From Tubiluchus corallicola (lineage: Eukaryota; Animalia; Priapulida): a stretch of 64,000 nt of DNA. The stretch lies in contig JAQGDQ010000005.1 in assembly GCA_030141605.1 (NCBI GenBank), positions 992,180 to 1,056,179 of the forward strand, in the 5' to 3' direction. The position numbers were made by a program, and so were the translations under genes. This document shows positions 35,159 through 62,100 of this stretch, in pieces. Below the pieces are notes generated by a model that was not told where the DNA came from, searched no databases, and was given only the letters and a program-made list of their open reading frames with translations. Each line of letters starts with the position of its first letter. Within the stretch, counting starts at the first letter, position 1.

Positions 35159-38100
35159 CTATTTGCTACCCTCACTATCATCTGCGCTGTTCTCAGTCAC
35201 CTGAGCCATAGACGGAGGTGTCTTTGCAGCGTACTTTGGTTGTCTATCATACTGGTTTCCTTTATCTAAATCTTCTTGTGAACTCTCTGAAATTGGTAAA
35301 TCAATCTTGCTGAAGCACAGCCTCCAATCAATTAGCAAGATTAGCAGAGAAAAACTAAATAGACTTTTACAGAAACAAATGATACCTTTAAAATAATTTT
35401 AAATGTCTTCTTTTCTTCTTCTTATGATACAAAACTTCATTTTCAAATGAGTGGCAAAAAGGACACAGTGAAGAAATGTAAAAAATTAGCAGTTTAAAGC
35501 ATATCAAAGAACAAAAGTTTTATCGACTAAACCCTATTATCAGTAACTCACAAATAGCAAAACTGTGTACTGCTTAACTTGTAGCGTTAAGGAAAAAAGA
35601 AAATTCTAAAAATTAAGGGTAATAGTACATGTTTCCTATATAAATAAACAAAAAAGCTCATCGGAACTTGAAATCTCATATATGTTACCAGAAAAATGGA
35701 GTTTATCTATATCAACTACGTGATTTACACTGTCTCTCTTGACTATACATTAATAAATAATAATATTATTAATAGCATTCATATGGCACCTAGTACACTA
35801 TTTCTCCAGGCCAGTTTTTTTCACAAATAACAACTTTTTTAACTTTTATTTAACCCACTTCACAAGTTCACAATTTGGAGACATTACACATAGTTTACAT
35901 GCAGATGTGGGCTATCCATACATGGAGAGCCATACATGGCAAAAAACCGCAAACCGTACCGACCACCCAGATTTGAACATAACAGATTAAAACACAAAAA
36001 GAATCGCTGGAAAGACACTTAGTTACCATATTCACTTACCATTCAAGCTTTCTGAAGTGCTGATTGAACTGGGAGATATTTTACTGGAATCGCTGCTATT
36101 CCATCTAGGTGGAGTGATTGCCTGCTTCTTATTGGGTGGTGGACTATTCTGAATTTGCATGTGATATTTATAAGTATTCTCTGTACTTTCCATCACACCT
36201 ACCACAAAAAAATTAGCGTAATTTTGCTGAATATGAGAGGAGAAACTGTATGTAAAAAGAATGGTGCTGACATTCAAGGTAAAAAAGCTTAAAAACCTGA
36301 AGCCAAGTCGAATGTACGTCCACTGATGCTTGTTTCTTTCGGGGCTGGTGACCACCAGTTTATTAAAGAGCCAACAATCGGCACATAGCGTAGGATACCC
36401 TAAATAAAAATGTATTAATTACCCATCATTATAAGAATTTATCACATATATAAGAAATACGCAGATTATATATTTCTATATATGTATTCTGTGCACAACA
36501 AAACTGAAACTGTTCAACTCTAGATCTTGCATACAAAATATCCATTTGAGCATTTAAGCTATTTTATTAAGTGACAGAGTTAAAAAAACTGAATCTGTAG
36601 TGTGGAGACGTAGTTTATCAACTTGTTCTGCTTTGTATGTCTATGAAAGACACATTTTTTCTTCTGGTTATAAGCTTACACTCATGTGGAACTTCACTAT
36701 AACTCACTTTAAAATCATATCAGTACAAAGTAAACATGTTTCAATTCTTTGTCTCGTTTTACTATAAATACTGATGAATCCTTAAAAACTAAATTTATTA
36801 TTGCACAAATTATCTCTAAATTCACATGACAGAAAAACATCATACCTCTTGCATTAGTTTATCAACATTCTCTTGTTCAAGATCCTTATTCGCAGCCTCA
36901 ATTCCTTTCTTAACTACAGTAGCCATTGTTTCTATAAACTAAAAATGGAAGAAATAATAATCATTGTAAGCTTACTATGTAGGTTTCGGTTATTCAAATG
37001 AAAAGCTCATTACAGAGACACAACAACGATGTAAATTAATTGAAAATTTAAAAAATTTTGGCACGAAAGAAAATACTTAGAAATAATTAAATTTATTACA
37101 GAAAAACAAATTAACTACATCTCATTCATTATTCTAAAATTTGGTACTCCTTTGTGCATCACGTGAGATAGCTGGAAGATAATTAAGCTGTAGTTTCCCT
37201 TTTGCACCTTGTGATAATAAACATGGTACTTGCCGATAATGAAATTTTATGATTTATTCATATCTTTTTTATTATGGGAGGACTCATATATGTAAATTAA
37301 CCAAAAGCACATGGTTAAGTCACAGGAGCAGCCATCTACAAAAATTATTATCAAACTAACAAAAGCTGCAATTTTGAAAGAAAACTGTACCTAATCTTAA
37401 ACTATCTCCCCTAAAAAAATATTCAAAGGAAACACATTTTTTTTCAAGAATGGTTTACGTTGTTCAGAATTATTCAGTTGTGATGTACAGCACACGTTCA
37501 AGAACTCATGCATGAGCACAACGCATCTGAATTGTAAAATAAGCCGAGTATTTGTATGTCACACTGAATGTTGTACAGAAGCACTGTACTTCATTTTTCG
37601 CTTTCGCAAACACATGCAACACGATCATGGAATGTTTAAAAAATATGTCCTTTTTGTGATGTCATCACTAGTTGGGCTTGCCTGTCGTTAATTAAGTGCT
37701 TAGCCTATTATTTAATTATCAAAAAATGCTTAAGCATTATTATAGCTATTAAAATGTATACTTCTTACCATACTTCAAAATGGGACAGGATATGAGAAAT
37801 CATTCTACACTGCATTTTCCCTTTAATATTCATACTTTAGCTTTGGTTCTTGGATCATCAAGTAGGGACTAACTACCTAATTGAGCTGATATTGGCAAAT
37901 TTGCCAATAATTAGGACTTCATTTGCTGTAGTTATATAGTTGCTAAAACTCTAAATCTTTTAAGCAGCTGTAGTTATTATTAGTTATAGTGTAGCACAAT
38001 TTTTAGATACTTTAAGATTCATAGCAAATACTGCAAAATCCAAATTGAAATTCGCTTTTATGAATACAGATGAAGTATCTCAACATTTGTTGTATTTAAT

Positions 38101-41100: not shown

Positions 41101-44100
41101 ATACACAAACTCTACTCCAGGCCCAACTAGGCTACATGGTAAAACAAGCTTAAATTTTTATTCCAATAGCATAACATCTTTCAAAAATTGAAAAACTTAT
41201 TTGAGACATAATTTCCACTCTATAGCTATATTCCTATTTAAAGCTCTGTAATTCTTAACTAAGAGTATGTGAGTATTTTACCTATTGATAAACTTGACCG
41301 ATTTATTTTTTATTTATTTATTATTAAATAGATGACTTTTATTAAAAAATCATTAAGCAATTGCAGGAATTGTCATTATTTTTTGAGGAGTGGCTTACTG
41401 TGTGCATTCTCCAAAGGACAGTATCTGATACAGATCCCTTCACCATCGAGTTCAATCACGTCAGTTAACACTTCCGGAATATCACGCTGCAGGGTCTGCC
41501 CCATCTGAATATAACAAAACATCCACAAATTAAGCAAACATGAAGCGTTAAGAATTAAATGCACATCTTTGGGCAAAAGGCATTCTCACCAAGTTTATAG
41601 GACATGCATTTCATGCCTACAAGTGAGAGCTAGTATTGTTAGCGATCACGATTGATTTTCAGAACTGACTGCGATATTCTAATTTTTTTTTAAAATTGGA
41701 AAGAAATTATCACAAAAATGATCGCATGGATCAATTACGAAGCAATCATAAACAATAATCACAAAAGTGATTGCAATCATTTGTGCGATGACCATCACTG
41801 ATCATTGATCGTTAATTGCCATCATTTCAATTGCAGTCATAACAACCCTGGTGGAAAGGAACCTCTGACGAATGAAGAAATAGAAAAGCCAGGCCCTTTA
41901 CATCGATAACACTTTACCAAACTTCTTTTTAATACAGTTTAATTCATCGACTATTCGTGGTGATGTCTTTCAAACGAAGTGTTCAGTAGAAAAAAGTGGT
42001 GGAAACTGGACAACAACACCAAGGTCACCAATAACAATGACCAAGACATTAGTAAACAAATTGTTACTGTAATAAGATGATAAATGGAAATTGTACAGCA
42101 CAAAGGAAACTGAATTAAGCTGCATCTATAGCGACGCTGTAAGAGATAACATGTGCTCTATCACCTATCTTTGATTTGACAGCAAAGAAACATTCAAGTT
42201 GATTTGACAGCATGATCTTCTGGATGTTGTTTTTTGGATGTCATGGTTAACAGTTGTTCTAAAATTTTTAAACCCCATACTGTCACAACTTACCTGACAA
42301 CAGTTACTTTATCTATGACATAATCTTTATTTATTTTTGATAATTTTGTGCAGCATGCCAGTGGAAATAGATAAAATGTTATCTTACGACTGCTCGGCAT
42401 CTAGTGTGAAGTTGCTACCATTCAGTTTGACTGTACCATCTAACTGTTAGCAGGAATTGTATACATTGCAGAACCACTGTAGAAAAGAATCTTATTTGGT
42501 TGAGTTCTGTTTGCCCAGGGAAAGCAGGAAGTGTATGTGTAGCGGTTTGCCTCTCGTAATGTGATGACTAATAATGTGTTGAAATGTTTAACGGAGACTA
42601 TGTAGGGCAAGAGACGGAGACGGATTAAAGTAGAGTTACAACATTAACACTTATTTCTGCTAACGAAACACGTAAATTAACTTGACAACCTCATACACGT
42701 CACAACAATCTCATAAACGCGTATTCATGCACCGGTCAGTACGCCGTCCATTGTTCACTAAATGCAAAATACTGGACGAACCAACAATGCCTGCTGATGA
42801 TTAATAGAGGGCAGCACCATCTAATAAAAGTAAATGCAATCCTGGAATTACATTATGCTTGGAATGACATAGTACATGTAAATGGATTGAAAAATTTTCA
42901 GGCTGTTCTGGTGTTCTTAAAAAAACATAGTTACCCTTCGGTCCCTTCCAAACAAGACTTCAACATCATTTCACTAGCTATTTGCAACTTTTCACTTTAG
43001 TCAAATTTGCAAATTCCCAGATAACTAGTTTGTGTCATAATCACATCATTTATTTTTGTACTTTAATTTTGTCATTTGTTCATACATGGCACAAGTTCAC
43101 AGCACATAGAAATATGATTAGTGGTAACTGTTTCAACTAATGTTATAGGTTAAATCTAATAACAACAATAAATGTGGCATGTTATTTAATGCATATTTAT
43201 CTGAACCATAACAGTTTTACACACTTTCTGCATTTTCAAATGAACTAAATCTATAATTAATATTACATAATCAAGATATAATTAAATAGTTAATTAACCA
43301 AATTTAATTTCTTAACACATTCTCACTGTAGCACATTTTAAATAAGTTTACTTACTTTCATTTTAGTAGTAAGCTTGCATACTTTATGTAGTGATTACAG
43401 AATATCACTATTTTAGCTCTTTTGAAAAACTGTGATGGTTCAAATGACTAATAACGAACATAAACTAGTAAAGATTTTTTACTTTTTACTTGAATATAGT
43501 TATTTATAATCTCGTCGTGCTGGCAGAGATTTGTAAGAAAAAGCTACAAAATTGATTGTTGGAATTAAATTATAAAAATTACAGTACGAATAACAACACA
43601 GTACGTTGAGTGAAAGCACTCTACATGTAATTAAACAGATTGATTTATACAAGACTATGTCCACGTAAGTAAGGTGTGTTGAAGAAGCAACATAAACAAC
43701 TGACATGTAACTTTGAGAAAATAGCTTGTATGCTTTAGCTTGTAAGCTGACATTATGAGACAATTAGATAGCTGGACAATGTTGTATAACGTCAGGCTGC
43801 CTGAGGAGGTGTTGTCAATGCTTCTCTTTTCTGCATTTGTAGTAAATAAATTCACATAGCAGCGATATGAGTGAGACAATGAATCCACAAAGCAGAACCC
43901 ACAAGACAGCACCAAGTTGGTTCAATGTAATAGACTGGACATTAATGGCCTGATGAGGTTCGTCCACACACTTTCTCAATGGTTTCATCATGGTCTGTAA
44001 AAAATTTTCTATTAGATCACCTTGCATCAACGTGGCAATTCCGAAATTCAATGACTCGGCAAAATCATTTACTTTCCTAATTCCAAAAGTTAATGGAAGT

Positions 44101-47100
44101 GGAACGAACGAAACTGGTGCATATGAAAACCTACATCTTCCATGCACATAATAATCCTGAATTAATGCCAATGCTGCATATATATTATCATTAAAATATG
44201 TATACTTCCCTGTAGCAGTTAAGTTTAATGCTATCTCTACACTGTCAACAGGTACATTTCCATCAGCTTCCATTTTCTTCCACAGCTTCCCATATTCAGA
44301 CTCAGGAGCACTATTTTTCAACACTGACGTTGACGCAAAATCTCCTACTGTAACAGGAGTTGTATCACTGTCTATCAATTCTTGCAGGGAAATGAATGAG
44401 TAACTTTCTTTGCTGATAAACAGTTTACTAACTAATGTCCCTGTGTACATTGCTATCATATTTACAGCAAAAATCCACCACCATCCAATAAGCATTCTGG
44501 TTGACAGGCATCTGGGTAGGTAAGTTCCAGGTTGTTGCAAAAGTGACGACAGTGCGAACCGAATAAAGTATATGACATTGTTTCTTTCAGAAAATCTCCC
44601 CTTTTGCTGGTTTGCTGGCTTGGTGCAACAATCGAGACAAAACAGTAGTGATCCAACCACTAAAGTATATGTTATTAGAAGTAGCCAAACAGGCCAAGAA
44701 AATGGATCTGTCAAACCAAAACCTTTTAGTTCATGTTTCTTTACAACAAAAACATTTGGTGAATATGCAATAGGGTGAAGGAATCTCATATATTCAGTTC
44801 TTTCAGGAATTGTAGACACTAATCCAACAAGATCAACTTCTCCACTTTCCATGATTTTTTCAGGAGTTTCTAGTGATCCAAAATATTTCACAGTGTACAC
44901 AAAGTCTAAACTTTTGCTAAGCATCGCAATAATTTCATTCAAAAATGGATTGATTGCTTCGTCTTCCCAAAATGCTACTCTAAGATTTATTCCTCCGAGT
45001 GAATAGTTGTGCTTTTTAACAGTGTAACTAAGAAGACCATTAACGTTTTTCGGCATAAAGTTATCCAGTCCTGCGTGACACCAGGCAGACTGAATTGACG
45101 ATTTTTGAACATGACAGAGAATTTTATTTTCACAAATTATCATCCACACAGGACTTGTAGCAAAGCTCAACATTAAAAACAATAAACTTATCCAGAACAT
45201 TCTGTTGCACAAATACTATTATTAATGTGTATTAATTCTGTGTGAAAATTAAAAGTTCTAGTATATTAAAAGTATAAATTCGTAAAAACGCACACGTGCA
45301 TTTGTCATGAAAATAAAAACCGATTGACAAACAGTGACTCTTAACAATGAGTTAGGCAGAGGAGGTAATAGACAATATCAGTATTGCATAAGCACTGTTT
45401 GCTGAACATTAGCTTGCATTTATTCAACTGCTGCCTGTTTGTGTAAGAATGGAAAGCTTTCAGCAGCTGAATAAAATGCACACACGTCATCTGATTTTGC
45501 TATATTTTACGTTTCACCATTTGAGATGAAACAAACTTCAGAACAGAAGTCCTTATTAAAAGCAATATCATAACAGACCAGTTTTGTCAATTTTGGACAT
45601 TATTTACATTATCAAGAAGGTTATATTTTACACTTTTTTTACAAAAACCACTGTTTACAATAATCATCTCTACAATGTCAATCGTCAAAGTACATCACTT
45701 ACATTCATGTGTTTAATAAAGCAATAAATGTCAGTCATTTATGTTAAGCAGTTAACTGACTGTCTCTTTGCCAGAAGCACTCAAAAATAACAGTAACTCA
45801 GTAAACAGATCGGATTGACCAGCGTGTATCAACATTGGAAAGGGGGATAGAAATGCAAGGACATTGCTAAGAACTTTTTTTTGTTTGATTAAATAGAAAT
45901 GAACTGCAATCGAATGAACTGCTAATTTTTTGACAAGAAAAGAATCATGCCTATTATTCAATTACTGAGCAAAATTATATATATATATATAATAGCTGGT
46001 AATTTCAAAGCAACAGTTTACTTTGCTTTTTAAGAGCGATTCCAGATGAATGATTTTCACAAAGAACATTACAAGGTAAATGACCTATATGGAAACTAGT
46101 GCAAGTCTGATATCGGTCCTTTGTGAGGGCTCGTATTTTCAAAATTTTACATTTCCAGGAACTATTGTGAGTTCGATGATGTTTGGCTATTTCTGGACAC
46201 AACTGGACCTGGAAGTGGTTCAACAATTCTTACAAGCACTTACAACAAAATGGCATAATGAAGACTCTTGAAACCTGAGCAGGTAAGAGACCAAAAAGTA
46301 TATAGCACTTGTTCGCCTTTTGGTGAGTTTTGACTTTTGAATTTGTCTAGGCATGACAGTTATGTGTGTGAGCATTTCAACACAAAAAAGTACAGAGTTG
46401 ACACACAGTTAGTTGAGGGACTAAACACGACGAATGCGAAATAGTGAAAGCCAAGGTAACTTTGACTTCTGCAAAATCAGCCATTGAACGTGCTAGGCTA
46501 GGATCGTTCGGAATTTTTTAAATCAATTCCATTTGAATAGAGTAATGTACGGCTGAAACTCAGCCACATAAAAGGAAGCCAGTTATTTGTTGACCCTACA
46601 CAGATGACACTCAATTAACTAACACAACGAATTGGTATACTAATGGTATAGGCTTTCGTTTACATCAAATCAAGATGAACGGGTGTTGCGCTGGTGAACT
46701 TATGAAAAAGGACTTTCGAATTTTATTTATTTCAACCCAAATTATCTTGCCTTTTAAATTCTGTTATTTAAATGCATACTAAACACTGCCTAAATAAATG
46801 CATACGATAAATGACAAGTTTGCAAAGTGCAAATTTCCATTAATAAGACAAATACAGCACAAAGGCTGCCGCCTGTATATAAACAACATGAGATATTACG
46901 CCTTTGTATCAGAAATAATGATATATAAAGCACAATAGGAATTTTCATTAATGAAATGAGTAGTGGAAGTTACCAATCTGCAATATCAAAGATATAACTA
47001 GGCTCAATGGTAGGTGTAGCAGACTTAGCATTCTTTTTGTTAATCTTACTTATCGTGCACGAGGCGCCATCTGTGACGTGAATGTAAAGCTTTTGGTTTT

Positions 47101-50100
47101 GGCCAGCGTTTCTGTTTGTTACCTGCTAGTCACCTGTCTGTCATTACATACCTGTGCTCTGAACAGTCAGGTTAATCCATTTATGGGAGCTGTTGGACAT
47201 TTATGTTATACTGGACATACTAATTATGTTAATAAAGCATACAGTGGTATTAACCTCTGTTTACAGTGTTTTCTGTGACTACATCATTAACCTGACTAAA
47301 CTATTATGCTGACATTTGCTGTGGAAAGTTTATTTTTTACAACAGTGAACTGTGGAGGATTAGAAGCCATGCTGTAGCCTATACAGGTACACAACTCTGA
47401 GCTTGACCTACTTTGCTGTTAACACTGATTGTAGGACAACTACTGCTACGTTGCTGTAAAACTTTAGACTGCTGTGTGGAAATAATAATGTCACAGTCTG
47501 GAAAGAAGGAGCTTTCTCAGCACGCAGATAATATTAGTGATGAGAGTGCCCCACTGGAAACTGAATCTACTGTCACGGGTACTACTGCAATTCCTGATTG
47601 GCAACAATTTCTAATGCCGTCTGAGAATATTAAAAAGTTAAAAAGAACTAGGTCAGGTCAAGTGGCCTACATGACAAGACTGATTAATGTTTTGAAGTCA
47701 CTACTACGACAGAATGCCGATTTTGAACTAATAAAGGAAAAGGCCGATTCATTAACAAAGGCCTATGAGGAGGTTCTAAACACTTGTGAGACTTTGAAGC
47801 AATTAGTGACTGAACAATGTGAATTAGATGAAATATGTGAGTACATGGATGGCAAAAGCTGTGAGTACAGTGCCGTGCAAGCAAACGTGGAGGCGTATCT
47901 ACAACAGAAATGGCAACCAAGCCCACATGCAGCACCCTCTCCTGGTAGTGATCATGGATCCGCCCGTTTGCATTCACTCAAGCCACCGGAAGTGCCCGCA
48001 CCACCGGGTAGCGATCATGGATCCGCCCTCACACGCTCATCACAGGCAAACTCGCGACGCAGCGTGAGTTCAAGCGCTAAAATAAAGGTGGATGCCTATA
48101 AAGCAAAACTAAAGCTTGAACAGTTGCAAGGTGAACAAATGCTAAAACAACAACAGTTGCAAAGTGAACAAGTGCTAAGACAACAACAGTTGAAAATTGA
48201 ACAAGAGTGTGAAAAACTTAGAGCAGAGACTGATTTTAAGATAGCAACAGAGAGTTTGCGAATTTTGCAGGAAGAAGAAAGAGATGCAAATTCAGTTGAG
48301 TTGCATTCACACTTGTCTCACATGACACCTGCACATGGAACTGCCCACCACAGATCGTAAGGGCGTTCCCAGGATAAAGCCAGACAAACAGCAATGAATG
48401 CAGGTGCATTCACAAGTGCAGACACACTCGTTCATGTGAACCCAACTTCTCGTGTTGTTGACGGGGCTCAAGTTGCAGAAGGACATGTAACGTACGACTG
48501 TCTTGACGATGCCCAGGTGAGGAATACACCATCTGCATCTAATGTCAATGTTATCAGGGAGATGGCAGATGCAATAAAACGAGGTTTTTCTTTACCTGCA
48601 TCAGCGCTAACTGAATTTAATGGCGATCCAACTGATTATCATCGTTTTCTATGCTCATTTGAGGCCAATGTTGAATCAAAATGCAGCGACGATGGTGAAA
48701 AATTGCACTTCTTACAACGATATACAACTGGTAAGGCTTATGAGCTGATTAAAAACTGTGTGACGCTGCAACCAAGTGAAGGCTTCTTGAAAGCAAAGAA
48801 GCTTTTGGAAGAGCGTTTTGGCTCTCCTTATGTGATAGCCCGAGCATACATTAATGGATTAATTGATGGACCAGAGTTCAAGGTCAGTGACAGGAAAGGG
48901 CTTCAAGATTATGCTGATAAACTGGTTGATTGCCGAGATGCTTTAGGGCGTCTAGGTTATCACGCGGATATTAATGCTTCTGATAATTTAAAGAAGATTG
49001 TGAGGCGGTTACCAATGCAATGGCGAAGCCAGTGGTTAAGTACGCTCACTGAAGAAGATGACTCTAATAATCAACATCATATTAAGGAAGCCACGTTTGC
49101 AGATTTAGTGTATTTCGTTTGCAAGAAGGCCAAAGCAAGCAACCACCCAGTCTTCGGTGACATATTTGAGAGCAGCAAACAATTATCCTCTAGAGGTGTT
49201 TCTGGGAAAAGGATGGAAAGGAGCAAAAGTACAAAGGTCTTCAACACCGAATTGGCAAGGCAAAATGCTAAATGTCCAATGTGTCTTAGAGACCATAGTT
49301 TGGAAGACTGCACTGATTTTAAGAAGAATGTTACCGATGACAGATTCCAATTTGTTTTTAAAAAGAAGCTTTGCATAAATTGCTTTAAGCCAGATCATAG
49401 ATCGAAGATGTGCCCTCTAGGAATGAAGTGCAAAGACACGAACTGTAAAACACGCACAAAGCATCACCAAATGTTGCATCCATTACCGAGGTTTGGTCGT
49501 GGTGGCATAACCGAAAGACGACAACAACCAGGGCAGCAAAAGACACCTAGTGTTTCATACAATCCGCCAAACGGAGCCGGGCCAAGTCAAATCGATGACC
49601 ACTCTGGAGGTAATGGCACTGTAGTGGTCGCTGAAGTCACTGAGACTGAGAATCGTAATGTACCAGAATTGAGGAGTTGTAATTCTACACAGTTTGTCGA
49701 TCCTGGCTGTTTTCTACAAGTTGTTCCTGTAACTGTTAAGTCGGAATTGAACGGTAGAACTGTTACAACATTAGCAATGCTGGACAGTTGTTCAAGCTCT
49801 TGCCTTTGTGAGCAAAAGCTTCTGCAATACCTCAATGTTGAAGGTTCCAAAGGTACAGTGTCCATAACTACTGTGTGTGGAAAAGAGCAGCGACAAGTTG
49901 AGAAAATTGACTTGCTAGTGTCTGGAATCGACTGCGATGAGTATATCAAATTACCAAGTGTAGCAGCTATGAATGGTTTAAATTTGAGTTCCACAAAGTG
50001 TCCAAAAAGGGTGGAGCTGAACACCTTTGAGCACTTGAAGTCCATTCCGTTCTACACAGCTGACATCAATGAGGTTACGCTAATGTTAGGCACAAATGCA

Positions 50101-53100
50101 ACGCGATGTTTTCTAGTCTATGAGACAAGATCAGGTAGTAATGATGAACCCATAGCAGTTAGAGGTCCGCTAGGCTGGTCCATATTGGGAGGAACATCAA
50201 ATAGTTTGCAGTGCACTAGCAATTACACGAAGACTGAGGATGGTGATATGTTGCTTAAACAAGTTCAAAAGTTTTGGGAAATGGATTCCTGTGGTGTTGT
50301 CAGAGAGGCAAAGGTTGGCATGTCAGTAGAAGATGCACAGGCATTAAAAGTTACTACTGATTCTGCACAGCTCATTGATGGACATTACCAGTTTAAGATT
50401 CCATTTCGTCAAGATCCACCTGAATTGCCTAACAACAGGCATGTAGCCTTAAGAAACTTCTTAATGCTGGAAAGGAAATTTGTAAAGGATAGCGACTACA
50501 TGGAACTATATAAGAAGGCCATGAGTGACAATATCCAGAAAGGCTACGCAAAGCAGGTAGATGAAGAATATTCTGGAATTCGTCAAGATGGTGATGGTAA
50601 GAATCCCATATACTGGTATTTACCCCACCATGGAGTATTTCACCCTAGGAAGCCAAACAAGATCCGTGTTGTTTTTAATTGCTCCTGCAAGTGCAATGGC
50701 ATATCTCTGAATGATGTTATAATGTCTGGACCGAATCTGACATCAAATTTATTAGATGTATTGCTACGGTTCCGAGAGCATGAAGTTGCTATTTGTGCAG
50801 ACATCGAGGGCATGTTCAACCAGGTCCTCGTAGATCCTTCACAGTATGACATGCTGAGATTCTTGTGGTATGATGATGGCGCTCAGATTGGCGACAGTCC
50901 AGTAGACTACCACATGTCTGTTCACTTGTTTGGTTGTATCTCATCACCATTTTGTGCCAATCTGGCAGTCAGAAAGACAGCTGATGACAATGCTCATGAT
51001 TTTGATGCTGCAACACTGTATGCTGTAAAGAACAATTTTTATGTTGACGATCTGTTAAAGTCTGTCAGCACAGAGTATGAAGCAGTAAGACTAGCAAATA
51101 GCCTCACGGAACTACTGCAGAGAGGCGGTTTCCACTTGACAAAGTTCCTTAGTAACAGAGAGGCTGTTATCAAAGAAATTCCGGAATCTGAAAGAGCCAA
51201 ACCTATTCTGGACTTGCAACAGAAGCTAGCTGATCCACCAATAGAGAGTGCCCTTGGAATTAGATGGAACACTCAAGATGTATTTCAATTCAAGTCTGTT
51301 CTGAAGGGCAAACCTACCACGAGGCGAGGTATCCTGTCTGAGACATCATCATTGTTTGATCCTTTGGGTTTCTTATGTGCTGTGATTCTACCAGCCAAGG
51401 TCTTACTCCAGCACTTGTGCAAGCTAAAGCTTGATTGGGATGAGCATATCCCAGATGATCTAGAAGCTAAGTGGCTAAAGTGGACTACTAGCTTGAGCAG
51501 TCTTAATGACCTGAAAATTCCGAGATGTATCAAGCTCATCAATTTCGGACCTGTTGCATCCACCCAACTGCATCATTTTAGTGATGCCTCGAATGATGCC
51601 TATGGAGTATGCTCCTATGTTCGGTTTGTTAATCAGCAGGGACAGATTCATTGTTGTCTGCTAACAGCTAAGAGCAGAGTAGCTCCTCTGAAAACACAAA
51701 CTGTGCCGAGATTAGAATTGCAAGCTTCAGTTATTGCTGTCAGAATGAACAAAACAATTCTAGAAGCTTTGGACATCAAAATAGATGCTGTTGTTTTCTG
51801 GATTGATTCAACATCAGTTTTGAAATTCATCCAAAATGAAAAGAAGAGGTTCCAAGTGTATGTGGCCAATAGACTCGCTGAGATTCATTGTGGTTCAGAT
51901 GTTAGTCAATGGCGGTATGTCAGTTCTTCGCAGAATGTTGCAGATGACATAACAAGAGGCATAAAGGCAGAACAGCTATCTGCAGACCACAGATGGTTCA
52001 AGGGTCCTCCTTTTCTCTGGAAAACAGAAGCTGAGTGGCCAGCACAGCCAACACTATTCCCAGTACCTGATGACCATGAAGAAGTGAAGAAAGTGCAGAT
52101 CAACTTGGCCATCCAAGAAGATGCAATAGACGAGTTGCTAACTTATTTCTCTTCATGGGAAAAACTCCGTAATTCTGTAGCTTGGTTCATCAAGTATAAG
52201 CATTACTTGAGGAACAAGGGAACAGGTTGCCATGGAAAGATAGAGAAGCATCTGCGATATGGTGATCTGGAAGAAGCAGAGAAATCCATTATTCATCTGG
52301 TGCAGAAGATTGCATTTCGAGAAGAGATAAAACTGATGTCTCCCGCATTACCAGGTAATAAAGAATCACTTAATAAAGAGAAGAATCACCTAAAGTCCAG
52401 TCCTCTGTATGGCATCAGACCCTTCGTGGATGCCGAAGGCCTACTGAGAGTTTATGGAAGACTAACCAGAGGTAGCTTCAACTATGGTTACAAATATCCA
52501 CTGATTCTTCCCTACAAACATCACATAACTGACTTGCTGATTCAATATTATCATGAATCATATGCTCATTTAGGCAGAGACTACGTTCTTTCCCAGATGA
52601 GACTGAAGTATTACATTATTAAGGGGAAAAGCGCAGTAAGAAGAGTTTTGTCTCGGTGCTTCAAATGCAAGAAAGAACGCTCCCGGCCTGCCGAGCAGTT
52701 AATGGCAGATCTTCCGACTGCAAGGATTAAGCCATACGATCCTCCATTTTCCAGAATAGGAATCGACTTTTTCGGGCCGATATATGTTAGACAAGGCCGT
52801 TCTACCATCAAGCGCTATGGGTGCCTTGCTACATGCATGGCCACCAGAGCTGTTCATATAGAGATCACGCACAATCTTGACACCGACTCCTTCATCAACG
52901 CATTTCGAAGAATCATGTAGAAGAGGAGAGGTGCTGGAAGTCTGGACTGACAGAGGGACAAACTTCATTGGTGGTGAGCGTAAACTTCGTGAAGCTCTAA
53001 AACTGTGGAATGAAGAAAAATTAAACAAGCATATGGTGCAAAGGGGTGTAAAATGGACCTTCAACACTGCAGGGGCCAGTCACCATGGTGGTGTTTGGGA

Positions 53101-56100
53101 AAGGTGTATCAGATCTTTCCGTGGCATCTTCCGGCAACTGTTGAAGGAACAAACCATTACTGATGAAGTCTTGCTGACTTTGATTGCTGAAGCCGAGTTC
53201 ATCATGAACAACAGACCTTTAACGGAGTTTTCCAATGACCCAAATGACTTCAGACCATTAACGCCAAATGACCTCATTCTACAGCGACCTTGCCCAAATT
53301 TGCCACCAGACATCTTCTGCAAAGACGACTCTATGCTGAAAAGGAGATGGAGGCAGTGCCAGTATCTCGTCAACATCTTCTGGCGCCGCTGGGTCAAGGA
53401 ATACATTCCAAACTTGCAACAACGTCAGAAATGGCTGACTGTAAAAAGAAACTTTAAAGAGAATGATTTGGTTCTGGTCGTTGATGAGAATGCTGCTCGG
53501 AATCAATGGACAACAGGCAGAATCACCGAAGTATTCCCAGCTCCGGATGGACTCGTGAGATCAGTTATGGTGAAGACCCCATCTACGACATTGCTTAGAC
53601 CAATAACTAAGCTATGTCTCCTCGAAGAAGCTGAGTAAAACTCTGTTTAATGTGTTGATATGCACTTTAATTCTAAAGTACGAATTATTTCATATTTGTC
53701 ATATATAGTTACGTTTATTTTGACCTAATGACTGCAGTATTGTTGGTAAGAAATGACCTTGCCTGTATTATTTAGTTATTTAAATTTGATGCTGCAATTG
53801 TTCGCTGTTATGCGAAAAATTTGATTCTGTGTTAATTTTGTGAATTAAGTGTTATCCATGAATGTGTGATTTAGTTTACAATTTTGCCAAATTAATTGCC
53901 AGTAATTTGAAATGTATGTCAAATATTTGCTTAAATCTTTCAGACAAAATTAACATTAAATTCTATCACTTGGCAGTATGCCAACTTTGTGATAATGTAA
54001 TTCTAAAATTTATATGATGTGCTACATAGAACTTAGCTTTGAACGACATTTGCCTTTGCTAACTGTTATAAGCTATCAAAATGTCACTATAGCATCAGAT
54101 TCTGTTTTATTACATCGTATCTTATTATCGATTCGTTATTTGATTCATTGCTTTGTAGTGCTTTAGCTAACAGTATTTATCTGTAACTTTCATGTTTGGA
54201 ATTATTTCACTCAAAGTGTTTCACTGGAATAGTGTTAACTATCAAACTGTGTGATTGTTCAGTTTTGACTGAAATATTTAGTTGTACTAAATAGCATCTA
54301 AGTGTTACTGTTCAGAGTTCATGTAATATTGTCAGTGACTTACAAGCAGATTATTGTAATGACCACTTTATAAGCGCTCATTAGGAGCCGGGTGTAGCAG
54401 ACTTAGCATTCTTTTTGTTAATCTTACTTATCGTGCACGAGGCGCCATCTGTGACGTGAATGTAAAGGTTTTGGTTTTGGCCAGCTTTTCTGTTTGTTAC
54501 CTGCTAGTCACCTGTCTGTCATTACATACCTGTGCTCTGAACAGTCAGGTTAATCCACTTATGGGAGCTGTTGGACATTTATGTTATACTGGACATACTA
54601 ATTATGTTAATAAAGCATACAGTGGTATTAACCTCTGTTTACAGTGTTTTCTGTGACTACAGTTGGGTAGAGGCCCATAAAAATTGGTTAAACCGTGAGT
54701 TAAAAAATCTCAAGCCATATAAGGACATGTGTGTTATTTATTTATTGATTTAAATAAATCCACCCCATTGTACAACAAAGGTAAAATCTTTTCATAAGTG
54801 ACAGGTATGTTAAAAAGTTTAAAAAATGCTGAAAAGGTCACTTGTGACAAATGAAGTCAGGAAAAACGCTTGCTCAGTCAGCCCCTTTTGCTCCTCCCCT
54901 AGATACACCACTGTGTCTAAAAACAACAAATTGTCCTTTTATATCACAAATAACGCTACAAAGAACGTAAATACATTAGCTAGCTGTTTCTCTTTGCAAA
55001 AAACAGTGAAATATTGACATAGCCGCTTCAGTAAAGTGATATGTGCTGCCCTATTGTCAATATGCAAACCCATAAAAAAATTTATAGTGTACCTATTAGT
55101 GACTTACAATGGAAATGTATCAAAAGGAGATATTCCTTCGCACAACTCGCATCATTATTTGTTGCTTTTCAGGAATATATAGATTTTGTGAAACTTCGTG
55201 CCAATGCACATCACAAAAAAGTTTGACTTGCATTCAGAATTCAGAAAACCAAGCAAAAACTGTTTTCGCCTACTACATCGAGTTTGACAGATACGAATAC
55301 TAACTTCGGGGTTCACTTCTTCAAACGGGTATGGTATGAATTAGATTTCAAAATTGGGTAATCATACATGAGCTTTCCTTGCATAAGTTAAAAAAAGTTT
55401 AATAAACATTAAGAAATAATAATTAAGAAAAGTTAATAAATATAATAAATATGTGAATTTCAAAACTTGCCGAGCAGCACAAAATATTCTGCTAAAAAGG
55501 CTCTAATGTATTATTTTTCCATAATGTTTTCAACATACAACATAAAAGGCAAAAGGTTCTAAGTCATTATCGCTAGCACTTTCATCTGTATTTTAAGACT
55601 TCATCAGCTGATTTTTATTTGCTGAATACAGTAAATCTGTAAGCAAAGTAACCTGTTGAAGGCAAACGCTGCAATTTCATTGTACAAATCCTGCAAAACT
55701 ACACGTCACAGTTTCTTGGCAAACCAACTAAAGATTATTATTCACTTAAGAAATGCACACTTTTGTCCTCCAATCTTAATACCTTTTCACCAAAACTGCT
55801 TGCCTGAAAATTCAATTATATGCTTTGAGTAGTAAGAACAAGGCAACAAAGTACTTTGTTAGAAAGGCGTACCTTGCACAGCATCTTTGTTAATCATTCT
55901 GCTTTACTAAAATTGGTAAATGTTAAGTTTTAGATGAATGATGTTGCATCAGTAGTTGAGCTTTGGTTAATTTTGGTCTACCTTCTGGTGTTTTCAGGGA
56001 TCACGCTTACAGCCCCCTTTTGCTTAACTGTGTGTAGCATACAGTTTATTCAGTGTAAATAAGTGATCATGAGTTCAAGACAAGAATGAGAGCTTGCCAC

Positions 56101-59100
56101 AGAGGTTGCATGTCTCAGTTGTATGTAACTTTCTGCCTAAGAGATTTTTGCCATTTATCTGAAAGCTTTTGCTTAATAACAATGAATTTAACTCAACTTA
56201 GAAAGTCTTGGCATACTTCCAGAATGGTGAGATGGGCTTTTTTAGTGATTTTGCAACATCTTTGTTATGACAGAGAACTGAAAAACATTAAAGAAACAAG
56301 ATATTTTACTGATAAACTATTAATGAAGAAATCAATAGTTTACCAGAGTATCCAAAAGTTTAGCTGCATACTTGAAGATTGCTAAGCAAGTTTAGTTCAT
56401 CACTTATTCATGTTGGTATCATGGAGATTATAGATGAAATAATATTGCCATTGCACACACTGTCATAAATCTTAACTAGCAGTTTTCTTACTGTGATTCT
56501 CACTGCATTTTTGTCACACCCAGTGAAAATAAATATCACTATCTTGGTTATTTGAGTATTTTCACTAGCGACGGCTGTGATGAGAGGAATCGCTGGCGGG
56601 ACTTTAATCATTTCCACGGGTGATATGAAGAGTGATATCTTGCGGTGTTTAATGTTTTCACTGGTGATTTTATTGCTCCAGCATTAGAGCACTCGCTAGC
56701 AAGATTTACAAGAGCTTTCCTTTGCTGTGGCGATAGACTGGCTGTTGGTGATTTTGGCATTTGTGATATCGCCAGTGCTTAAAGTGCGCTGTGCCTGTTA
56801 GAATGGCAGACCTGGAACATAAAATTGCAGATTCTGCACCTAAAGAAAGACAATGTCTCGCTGGGTTGTACATTTAGTTTTCTCACCATTTAATTAGATA
56901 TAAGCCTATCCGTAACACATGTTAGTAGCACAATTTACATCTTGCAGTCAGAAAAATTGAACTGTAAATTATAACAACGGGCACAATGATAACAACAATA
57001 ACGTGCTGCAACTCACTTTTCTTGCAACTTTTCAGGAAAAAAGAAACTGTTTCTTGAGAACATGCACACAAGAATAATGAGTTAACACACTTCACCATGC
57101 CATAACTTATTTTGGTTTAGATTTCGAAAGTTGCTTTAAAATTTGGCTGTAATCAGTTGGTGTGATTGTATTAGTAAAAGTATGTCAACAGGTAAATTGC
57201 AGCTAGTACACGTTGCTGTACTTCGTCTGCTCAGTGATTCCTAATGGTTAAATGGTTTAAATAGGCAAAGACTTAAACAGGATAATGTATAAAGGCTAGC
57301 TGATGAAAACTAGTTAATTTACTGATTAAAAAGAAAATTAATGTTTTTGTATTAAAACCTATATTTTGTATCCTTAATGGCAAAAAATATTTGAAAAACT
57401 ACTTACTGAACTGACCTTTTTCTACAACTAAAAGCCTAAAATCAAGGAAAATGCATTGGTTTTTGCACCAATGTAAGCCCCGGACGACATAGGGCGAGCT
57501 TACAGTGCTCCCCCAGACCTCCAGCTGTTTCTTGCTCTGTTCATTCTGACCTCTTACCTAAACACTTTAAGCACTGGATATCACCTAAGTGTTATAATCA
57601 CTGTGATAAAATTGCTAGTCAAAACGATCCTTAGTGAAATGTTCTCAGCTTCCACATAAGGTTACTGTCACTTACTACATATACAGAGAACAATTCGTGT
57701 GTGTAAATGATGCATTTAAATAATGGGATTTTTATGGTAAATTATATTCCATACTAGAATTTAAATTAAGCAGCTAATTTAACAACTGAGGCTAAGCTCC
57801 TATATAAGAAAAACACTCATAATTACAATTTATGGCAAAATTAGACTTTCATTGATTCACACATTTTGGAAAAGCAAATCGACAAGTTAGCAGACAAAAA
57901 TGAACTTGTCAGTAGCAGTGCTAGAATTATGAATTTATTCCACAGCAACACAAACATACATACAAATTGATATTACATTGAAAAAAATGAACAAAGCGAG
58001 TTACTGTGAGGAGTTACTGCATTGAGCTTTCAAGTCCTCCTCCAAATAAGTGAAACAATTGACAATTAACATTGGATAGTATTTTCATCAGTTATAACAT
58101 ACATTAGAACCAAATAAGTTTTGTTAGTAACTTAAGATCGGGATGAGTAAAATTGTGAGTTAATTATACTGTTGTAGTAGGTAATTCTTTGATGCATTTT
58201 TAAATTGATAAAGATTAAGAGTTTTCATTTCACGCGGATTATTTACGCGGACATGTTAAAACTGAATTATTTTACATGATTATGAATTAATTCAACCATC
58301 AATGCAAAAAGTGCAGAGCACATTCCAAATAGTAATAACCAAAAAGCAGTGCTAAGCTGTTCTATAGAAATTGCTTGTGCTTCTATAGCTTGACTAGGCA
58401 TATTCAAACATTTATGTGAAGGAACAAACTGCTTGTTTAATAAATTACCGGCAATGCTACTTTGGAGTAATGAAGCAAAGCCATGGTTTAATGCTTCTGT
58501 ATAGTGACTTTGTTTTGGAACTGCAAAAGCCATTTGCATTGGAGCAGAGACTACTGGTGCTACAGAAAATCTACAATATCCATATATTGTAAAGTCTCGG
58601 ATAAACTCCAACTCTGTATGAATCTCATTATCAAAATATGTATATCGTCCTGTAAATGTCAGATCTAATGCTGTTGAAATATCATCCACAGGTACCCTTT
58701 CATCAGCTTGTATTTTCTTCCACAATTTTCCATAATCTGTATCAGATGGACTGTTTCTTAAAACAGAAGTAGAAGAAAAATTTCCAACAGTTAAGGGAAT
58801 TATGTTACTTTCTGTTAATTCCTGAAGAGTGGAAAACGTGTGGTATTCCTTGCTTACAAACAGCTTACTGACCAACATTCCTGAATACATGGTAACTACA
58901 ATGATCGCAAACAACCACCACCATCCAATGACCATTCGAGCAGGCAAACGCTGAGGTAAGTAAGTTCCAGCTTGTTGCAGAAATGAAGACAAGGTATATT
59001 GAGTGAAATACATTATACCTGATTTTGCAGAGTGCATTTCAGTGAAATCATTTTTTTTGCACGCCATCTTTGTTTGACGATTAAGACAATAAATTATAGG

Positions 59101-62100
59101 TCCTGTTACAATTCCAAATGTTATAAGCAGCAGCCACACTGAAGTACTGAAAGGATCTGTTAAATCAAATCCTCGCAATTTGTTCCGTTTTGTAACAAAC
59201 ACCTGTGATGAATATGCAACTGGATGCAAAAAAGTCATGACCTTTGTCCTTTCCTGAAGCATATCAACTAATCCAAATACATCAACCTTAGCCTCCTCAG
59301 CCACTGTTTCTGGATTTTTCCAAGCTTCAATCATTTTTGTTTTAAAAGTAAAGTTCAGAGCATTGCTGAGTGCCAGAAAAATTTTATTTGCATACGGTCC
59401 AACATTATCAGAATCAGCATCCCAGATACCGACCACAAGTTCAGCACCGTTGAGTGAACAGTCATGCATACCCCAGTGGGTGCTATAAAATGCACAGTAA
59501 TCTTTTGTGGTTGTACTGCCCATGTTTTTCAAGTGTCTAGGCTGACTGACACTTTGTTTGTTGTCTACATTGGTCTTACAATTCCTAATGCAAAATTTTC
59601 CCAAAAACTGAAAAATAACAATGTAAGTCAAAAAGAACAGTGTCCTTGTAGAAACCATGTCACAGCCTTCCCAGATTAATTATTTTTCTGCTCAAAACAA
59701 AAAGATCGAGTCACCCTATGTCACTTTTGCAAAATCCACTATGAGTCAGTTACTGCTAAAAGCCTCTTATTGAAGAATAGTTATCGATTAGTGATGTGCT
59801 GACGAATGGCTGGTTTTCCCTATACGACAAATAACATTTATCACAATCACCAAACGTACAATAATAGGGATTGTATACTAACTATGACTGCTAAGTGTTA
59901 TTGACTGTTTCTTCCTCACCACAATGCTGACTAAACAAATACAAATGACATACAAGAACAAGCAATTTGAACAATGCAAAACATAGCTCTGCCTTGGTGA
60001 GGTATGGGCGAGATTTACTAAACACCCATTTTCTCTTAGAAGTATAAAGAGAAGCTGATTACAACCACAGAAGTCAGCCTTGTGCAGTCTGATATTACCT
60101 AGGTTGAAAACTTCTATGAGTTAAAATTACTTCTGTATTCATCCTTATGCAAGTCGGCTTGAGACATTCAATCCACTTATGGCCTTTATGAGTGAATAAA
60201 ATAAAAATCTCCTACAGGTAGTCTAAGAAATTATGGGAAATTCTATCGAATGTTTTCATTTTCTTCAAAGCTAGATACTGAATACTTACCATGTAACACA
60301 TTTTTTTATTCATTTTAATGAAGCACAAGGATGAACTTAATATTAAATAACCGGTACTAAAAGATGAAAAAAGTGAAACAAATGGCACCCCAGTAAAGGT
60401 CCATATGAATGCAATGTAAACCAAAAAACTATAAGCTACACTGTTTTTAAGCTGTAAATGAAGTAGATCAAATTTACACAATATTTCTGACAACTCATTA
60501 ACAATTTAGCTAAAAAATCTGAAGAGGTTATTGTTGGAATGATTTTCTTTTAAGAAATAAAAACCACTTATTTTCCCTAAAACTACAATAATTTCAAATT
60601 TATTGCAATAGTATAACATTCGTAAAGAAAAAATCCAACAGCATATATCAGTCTCCATAATGGTTACACTTAGAGAATTTAGCAAAAATACTACAATTTT
60701 TATATTAAAAAGTATGTTCAGCATATTTAAGTCAAAGGCTCAGACTATTTCATACATTCCACAAGGCAAAAATGAAAACGTTATGCAGTAAATTCAAGCT
60801 CGCACAAGTGGGTAAGAATAATTAGTTTCAGACTACTTGTGTTTCATTTTACTGAAAAAGTCATACGACTCAGTGACACACATTGGTAATGGACAACTCA
60901 GTTTATATTTAAGCAAATTTGGGCAGCTCCAAAGATACACAGTAGAGAGGAGAGTTCCAAAAATAACCACTTGCCGAAAGACCTAGAAGATTCTATCGTC
61001 TCTAACCATTTAGCCACCTAAACGACCATTACACCAAGTGATGGAATCAACCTGGATCGGAATTTGGATAGCTGTGAGCAACTGTCTTTACTTGTACAAG
61101 CAAGGACACCAAGGCATTTGCACTCAAAGCGAGCGACACACAATAGCTCTTTGATCAAACAAGATATCTTGTACAGCTACAGAACTCCAGAAAAATCTAC
61201 AAACAGCACACCATAGGCAGCTATGCCACTATCATCACTCCAACTTAGTTTCTCGGAAAGAAAGGAAATTTTGATTTCAATCTAAATTTTATTATTAAGA
61301 CTGAGCACACTAGATGTGGTACACCTTTGACTGCATCCACACTAATTATAATTAAAAAAGCGCAACTTACCCACTTATTTAATGCATCCAAGTAGGCAGG
61401 ATTGGCACTGGTATTTGCATTCCTTTCCTCTGCATTGGCTGCATATGGTGCTACCTCAAGTTCTATAGTTTAAAGTATAGAGAAGGCATCACATTTTAAT
61501 GTCTTCTAAATTTTATTACATCTATTACATTTAAATCTTATTACACAATAATTATTCTAAATATTATTACAGCATATGCCATAGTAATAAATAGTTCTCT
61601 TTCATTAATCTTACAATCTAGAACAATGTTAAGCCAAGAAGCCGTTTAAGAGATTTGTATTAAAAGCTGTCATTAGTAGCAAGGATATGTCGTTCACAAA
61701 CATTAAAACAAAACCGACCCAATCTTATACTGCAGGTCAAAACAATCTGCTCTTTAAAATATTAAAAGGGAACACACAATTTTTTCAAAATGACTTACGT
61801 GAAAGAATTATTACCACATGAACACGATTTCACATCCGCGCCACTAGTTCTTCGGTGTTACATGCATTTCCCCATTCGCTAGTTAGACGGGCACTAGCGC
61901 CTTAGTTTCTGAGGAACTATGCACGTTCGACAGCACATGCGTGAGCACAGTGCTAAATTTGAAATTTGAATTTTTATCTTAAAACTTGCCTAGTTTCAGT
62001 ACAACACACTGAATATCTTACAGTAGCATTGTAATTCAATTTTCAATTTCGCAAACATGTGCAACATGCTCGTGGAATGTTTTTGCTGTTGAAAATTATG

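Follow-up and report, generated by a model that had tools for sequence, protein, structure and literature searches.

The window, by which we mean the whole 64-kb stretch of DNA that was analysed, contains a BEL/Pao retrotransposon of 7.6 kb that is young but broken (Table 1). Its two LTRs differ at 3 positions and constitute the sole long near-identical direct repeat in the window, and the structural hallmarks of the group, two TG...CA LTRs, a target-site duplication (with one mismatch) and a polypurine tract, are all present. Three reading frames are found between the LTRs. The lesions are a stop that ends the frame 47407-48360 and a frameshift in the integrase near 52.9 kb, and the approximately 740 nt of AT-rich non-coding sequence from the integrase stop to the polypurine tract (53640-54382) are devoid of an envelope-sized ORF. 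The element is located between two single-frame ORFs on the minus strand (43815-45215 and 58267-59679, approximately 470 aa each), both of which match Lig_chan and resemble intronless ionotropic-receptor genes. An unrelated repeat is present as two 83-nt copies at 37724-37806 and 62175-62257 that are 72% alike.

Table 1. Features of the BEL/Pao element, in window coordinates.
Feature	Position	Strand	Remarks
Left target-site duplication	47010-47014	+	GTAGG; 5 bp
5' LTR	47015-47283	+	269 nt, TG...CA; no sense GT(A/G)AG splice donor
Rival promoter candidate	47083-47116	+	TGTAAAG at 47083, 30 nt before TCTGTT at 47111-47116
Predicted self-primer segment AGTCAGGTTAAT	47165-47176	+	predicted 3' end after T47176
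AATAAA polyadenylation signal	47231-47236	+	54 nt 3' of the pairing segment
Spacer TC	47284-47285	+	2 nt; separates the 5' LTR from the primer site
Putative primer-binding site ATTAACCTGACT	47286-47297	+	complementary to 47165-47176; no TGG
gag, 5' part	47488-48360	+	first ATG to premature in-frame stop; no Pfam match
Rest of gag (DUF1759), protease region, RT (YVDD), RNase H, start of integrase	48361-52920	+	
Integrase, C-terminal part (DUF5641)	52862-53638	+	different frame from upstream pol
Polypurine tract AGGAGCCGGG	54383-54392	+	adjoins the 3' LTR
3' LTR	54393-54661	+	269 nt, TG...CA; second copy of the pairing segment at 54543-54554
Right target-site duplication	54662-54666	+	GTTGG; one base unlike the left copy GTAGG

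Pfam matches above the cut-off were obtained for Peptidase_A17, DUF1759, DUF5641 and Integrase_H2C2, and a weak one for RVT_1 (22 bits against a cut-off of 29.6). Their order, DUF1759, RVT_1, Peptidase_A17, Integrase_H2C2 and DUF5641, corresponds to PR-RT-RH-IN, and these domains are common to the homologues. RNase H is covered by the Peptidase_A17 model and retains its four invariant acidic residues; in an alignment of the long frame of the window with 36 of at least 120 homologues, the acidic residues of RT and RNase H are present and invariant in all 37 rows. Among the matches listed, protein relatives are 45-51% identical over residues 640-1240, and the named ones originate from corals, sea urchins, a hemichordate, a brachiopod and a limpet. 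The assignment to BEL/Pao rests on this polyprotein, which is not of the Ty3/gypsy type that marks the Tf1/sushi group; the tRNA-Arg or tRNA-Gly site belongs to the ICTV description of typical members, and the level of classification is BEL/Pao, above the named clades Sinbad, Sparrow, Surcouf, Suzu, Pao, BEL, Tas, Dan and Flow.

At the position expected for a tRNA site after the 5' LTR we looked for TGG and found none. The 12 bases ATTAACCTGACT are instead an exact reverse complement of AGTCAGGTTAAT in the element's own LTR, and the pairing is bounded on both sides by mismatches (C47164/A47298 and C47177/C47285). The window contains a single copy of the site 12-mer, and the complement of the 12-mer is confined to the two LTRs. 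All of this, coordinates, letters, flanking mismatches, TC spacer and lack of TGG, is as given in the preliminary description. Its chance estimate was 2e-5 per start position; a looser, empirical test still yields a small value, as complements of at least 12 nt to this LTR arise in 30 of 63,342 overlapping 25-nt stretches elsewhere in the window (4.7e-4). The pairing segment does start in a CAGT initiator-like motif, as had been described; that R begins there was an assumption and not an observation. Note that the segment has another, imperfect complement in U5 (47245-47261), with an exact 8-mer at 47249-47256 against 47169-47176.

The predicted probability of the 12-nt helix is 0.94-0.95 if the RNA starts at 47165, 0.05-0.94 from 47143 and 0.02-0.37 from 47113. 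Folding thus mildly favours a start at 47165, with the caveat that the removal of upstream sequence helps any helix, and the overall fold is unexceptional (z -1.64). The U5 stretch 47249-47256 was considered as the main partner of the segment and rejected, the probability of this helix being at most 0.03 in the 5' leader and up to 0.29 in the 3' copy. For the rival promoter candidate in Table 1 we assume, speculatively and from consensus motifs, that TGTAAAG is TATA-like and TCTGTT initiator-like; some copies of the family have an A at 47113. Three ACCTG motifs precede the pairing segment in the LTR (47121, 47132 and 47150), reading CAGGT on the minus strand, which we take to resemble antisense splice donors or E-box/Zelda-type sites. 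Repeats of ACTTAC, antisense donors, are likewise seen near the LTR start in four relatives (L041, L065, L066 and L068).

Contigs from four DNA runs (two samples) contain the window element as a multi-copy family. Among the contigs from both samples no change is listed in 47286-47297, and the site is therefore not private to the window copy. The possibility that the 12-mer is a rearrangement specific to this copy, raised in the preliminary description, is at odds with this recurrence and with the self-complement that the relatives retain. Approximately 20 variable LTR sites are listed in 47060-47283, one of them in the pairing segment, a 1-nt deletion at 47171 in one contig. As this number matches the chance expectation, variation within the family is uninformative, and we have rejected its apparent conservation as evidence. 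Many contigs break off at 47015 and 47283 with unrelated flanks, and the summed contig depth over the LTR, which is not to be read as a copy number, is approximately 10x that of the element interior; together these observations indicate that free LTR copies are probably common.

For a comparison beyond the family, the alignment with the 36 homologues was used to retrieve 78 loci from metagenome contigs (the best 80 of 531 confirmed); a pattern scan of viral contigs gave 29 matches, with no relative among them. In 14 loci the LTR 3' end was fixed by the repeat between two flanks, and L001 and L043 were dropped as near-copies of L003 and L048. Set A comprises 12 relatives with LTR ends from such a two-copy repeat plus the window element, with three ends moved (L020 and L042 by 1 nt, L036 by 10 nt), and set B 12 further relatives whose LTR end was picked by scan or by eye. 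The 24 relatives of sets A and B show approximately 50% or lower RT-RNase H identity to the window element. Together with the window element they make up the matrix, the other 54 of the 78 loci standing outside it; L012, L024, L072, L047 and L077 are without a clear LTR end. Complements to each site were sought and scored both in contiguous LTR sequence and across GT-AG joints. Since the targets in the relatives were found by a search for complements, the pair counts are partly circular, and the non-cognate matrix serves as the control. The LTRs of L028 (8599-9139), L036 and L042 end in TATA or AATA and not in CA, and the self-complementary site is kept in all three.

As evidenced by this matrix, each of the 25 elements (the window element and 24 relatives, from the best 80 of 531) carries a cognate match of 10-15 nt to its own LTR that begins 2-4 nt after the LTR, with letters that differ between elements. 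At least 10 nt are reached in 13 of 600 non-cognate pairs, many of them between sister families with the same site; in set A alone the figures are 13/13 cognate and 4/156 non-cognate. Positions 4-10 from the target end show three or four Watson-Crick pair types each, with the exception of position 7 (two), and most of positions 3-10 of the helix show three or four; this count was made on 23 elements, the sisters L027 and L056 being left out, and positions 1-2 are imposed. Two-sided changes in the 12 bp number 5 between the window element and L003 and 7 between the window element and L046. The 3' end of the target is A-C or A-T in 24 of the 25, a feature not imposed in the matrix and one expected of a fixed cleavage or priming register. 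In a separate scan of 39 loci, 28 remained below 10 nt, many of them visibly without a whole LTR, and 11 reached at least 10 nt, of which 8 are credible while L012, L013 and L047 were judged spurious; the reversed-target null had a maximum of 9 nt. A normal TGG site in sister copies would, according to the preliminary description, have spoken against self-priming. Within 8 nt of the LTR we see TGG in one of the 25 elements only, L002, which also matches its own splice joint. The covariation that had been proposed as a check is present, and it supports the earlier reading of a self-complementary primer site over an accident of one copy.

The match is contiguous in the window element and 8 relatives. 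In the other 16 of the 24 relatives it arises only when the two sides of a predicted GT-AG splice joint within the LTR are brought together, with a GT(A/G)AG donor in 15 cases, GTTCGT in L002, and introns of 76-372 nt. In the window LTR, which contains no GT(A/G)AG donor, no GT/GC-AG joint exceeds the contiguous 12 nt, and removal of an intron neither creates nor lengthens the complement. Splicing at the acceptor-like AG 47165-47166 of the window copy was also considered and rejected: the match gains no length from any donor, and splicing at this point merely reproduces the same two letters. In several relatives read by eye, pairing continues upstream past a bulge of 2-4 nt. With 16 of 24 segments spanning a predicted joint, this implies that the primer, unlike that of Tf1, does not have to consist of the first ~11 nt of the RNA; the spliced relatives point to longer primers. 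Extra donors of the GTAAGT type lie upstream of the primer joint in L003:972-1390, L009:682-1077 and L036:6401-6951, so that alternative splicing in some of the spliced LTRs might separate primer-competent RNA from mRNA.

The coexistence of both forms raises the question of their history. In an IQ-TREE analysis of 32 labelled RT-RNase H sequences, rooted at the midpoint and with the labels of L016, L032, L047 and L077 on partial evidence, the window element joins the spliced L001 and L063 (95/92) on a long branch (1.23). FastTree, with 77 rows, places it otherwise, loosely near L002 and L019, which are also spliced. On the IQ-TREE topology, 5 changes are required to account for the contiguous state, well-supported branches force 4 of these, and L065/L041 and L068/L066 are sister pairs of one spliced and one contiguous member. 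L001 belongs to the same family as L003, and L063 shares the site of L046. The distance from target end to LTR end is 108 nt in L003 and 107 in the window element, with AAT then C in both, and in register with L003 the former joint of the window element would fall at 47170/47171. On the simplest reading, the contiguous state would have arisen by precise loss of the intron, and the window copy looks like an intron-less derivative; given the midpoint root, the long branch of the window element and its differing FastTree placement, the direction is tentatively read as loss rather than gain.

From the sequence, we consider it likely that the 12-mer downstream of the 5' LTR acts as a self-primer site, and that this holds throughout the lineage, because every one of the 25 elements has a cognate complement, with different letters and in spliced or contiguous form. 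The transcript would fold back to pair 47165-47176 with 47286-47297, and cleavage immediately 3' of U47176 would follow, probably through the element's own RNase H by analogy with Tf1. Primed by the 3' end thus freed, minus-strand synthesis by RT would run through the spacer and U5-R as far as 47177 (approximately 109 nt), and the DNA would then transfer to the 3' copy of R. The primer itself may begin at A47165, giving 12 nt, or further upstream, giving a longer one. We lean, with only slight preference, towards a wider picture in which a broad animal BEL/Pao lineage self-primes, the spliceosome ancestrally joins two LTR exons, and repeated precise intron loss gave rise to the contiguous, Tf1-like form, including the window element with its old joint at 47170/47171. 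In this lineage the pairing segment would come together when an intron is spliced from the transcript of the 5' LTR; with the primer 3' end of the spliced relatives in exon 2, complete splicing and then the cut would both be needed. Because the DNA jumps to the 3' copy, which is unspliced, the intron would be retained, and this implies that it persists only if the 3' LTR copy is usually copied unspliced. Occasional splicing of that copy would delete the intron precisely and leave a contiguous segment.

Other explanations were weighed against self-priming. The pairing might be selected and yet structural, acting in packaging, dimerisation or the control of splicing, translation or polyadenylation, while another primer starts the minus strand. 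The U5 stretch 47249-47256 does offer 47169-47176 a weaker second partner, whose helix reaches 0.29 in the 3' copy, so that the segment could act in a switch; the same helix does not rise above 0.03 in the 5' leader, however, the start of the match 2-4 nt after the LTR in all 25 elements is the register that a primer needs, 24 of 25 targets end in A-Y, and 24 of 25 elements are without a tRNA site. We regard a purely structural role as unlikely. An LTR-derived primer that acts in trans or is released by a host nuclease, with trimmed solo-LTR or early-polyadenylated transcripts annealing to the genomic RNA, could draw on the abundance of contigs bounded at 47015 and 47283 with unrelated flanks, on the approximately 10x LTR depth and on the AATAAA 54 nt after the segment. 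The intramolecular helix is nevertheless predicted to form readily, the RNase H residues are present in the window element, and cleavage in cis by an element's own RNase H has a precedent in the accessible description of Tf1 (PMC7175516), so that we hold a trans or host-cut primer to be quite improbable.

Least credible, and in our view very improbable, is that a host tRNA fragment or small RNA anneals to the site, or that the site arose by local rearrangement, with the LTR match being incidental. Priming by tRNA-Arg or tRNA-Gly is what ICTV gives for Belpaoviridae (PMC8742986), and half-tRNA priming is known in Copia, as stated in the accessible text of PMC6317226. Against this, the 25 elements have many different sites, each of which tracks its own LTR or splice joint, and contigs from two samples carry the site with no change listed in 47286-47297. 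No tRNA genes were found in the 64-kb window.

If self-priming is confirmed, BEL/Pao would be the third LTR superfamily to use it, and a self-priming lineage would account for elements without a recognised primer site. The sister pairs of spliced and contiguous form provide a natural comparison for primer cutting, and self-priming predicts RNA termini at 47176/47177 and defined splice joints in the relatives. In mammals, tRNA fragments can repress LTR elements through their tRNA-complementary site; self-priming elements would be without such a site open to tRNA-fragment repression. The literature was searched for self-priming BEL elements, as the preliminary description had suggested, and no report of BEL/Pao self-priming was found, although subscription papers, Repbase Reports, GyDB and supplements may hold one. 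Some zebrafish BEL entries in Repbase may have been annotated without a tRNA site. The accessible parts of PMC3601003, PMC5445492, PMC2774666, PMC8220671, PMC12451622 and PMC3286476 contain no word on BEL/Pao self-priming, and terms for tRNA, PBS and priming are absent from those of the Sinbad paper (PMC554778), a BEL/Pao survey (PMC3118150) and a mollusc survey (PMC6238403).

In its LTRs, polypurine tract, PR-RT-RH-IN gag-pol, Pfam families and a size within 4.2-10 kb, the window element resembles the canonical Belpaoviridae, for which ICTV describes tRNA priming through an 18-nt tRNA-Arg or tRNA-Gly site and a replication that is poorly understood (PMC8742986); unlike these, the window element and 23 of the 24 relatives are without a TGG site. 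The absence of a tRNA site from the expected place is shared with the fungal GalEa Copia elements (Conserved Hairpin Site), whose site, according to the accessible part of PMC5445492, is a local palindrome with no LTR complement found, whereas the complement of the window element lies in its LTR. Self-priming is established for Tf1, whose RNA pairs with the site through its first 11 bases and is cleaved by RNase H between bases 11 and 12 (PMC7175516, as far as its accessible text extends), and has been proposed for Tj1, Tcn1 and Copia TAR (accessible sections of PMC7175516, PMC4600332, PMC5341516 and PMC6317226). With a site of at least ~10 nt complementary to its own LTR RNA and no tRNA site, the window element is like Tf1/Tf2 of S. 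pombe, Tj1 of S. japonicus, the Tf1/sushi group and Tcn1, which in the accessible portions of PMC7175516, PMC4600332 and PMC5341516 likewise have a complement of ~11 nt to the own LTR and no tRNA site. The Tf1/sushi and Tcn1 groups are Ty3/gypsy elements, however, while the window element belongs to another superfamily, BEL/Pao, and unlike Tf1 the segment of most relatives spans a predicted splice joint, which is absent from the descriptions of Tf1-type elements as far as these are accessible. Self-priming outside Gypsy is already proposed, in the Copia TAR lineage (Houba, Osr-1), where the accessible text predicts it from a complement of at least 10 bp located 0-5 bp after the 5' LTR (PMC6317226). 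The window element shows the same arrangement; TAR, as described there, is a lineage of another superfamily (Ty1/copia) and other hosts (plants), with contiguous complements only. What the sequence most likely represents is thus a known mechanism, self-priming, in a superfamily described as tRNA-primed, with the window copy as the simpler, contiguous form, and the more surprising form, a primer built by splicing, is predicted for its relatives.
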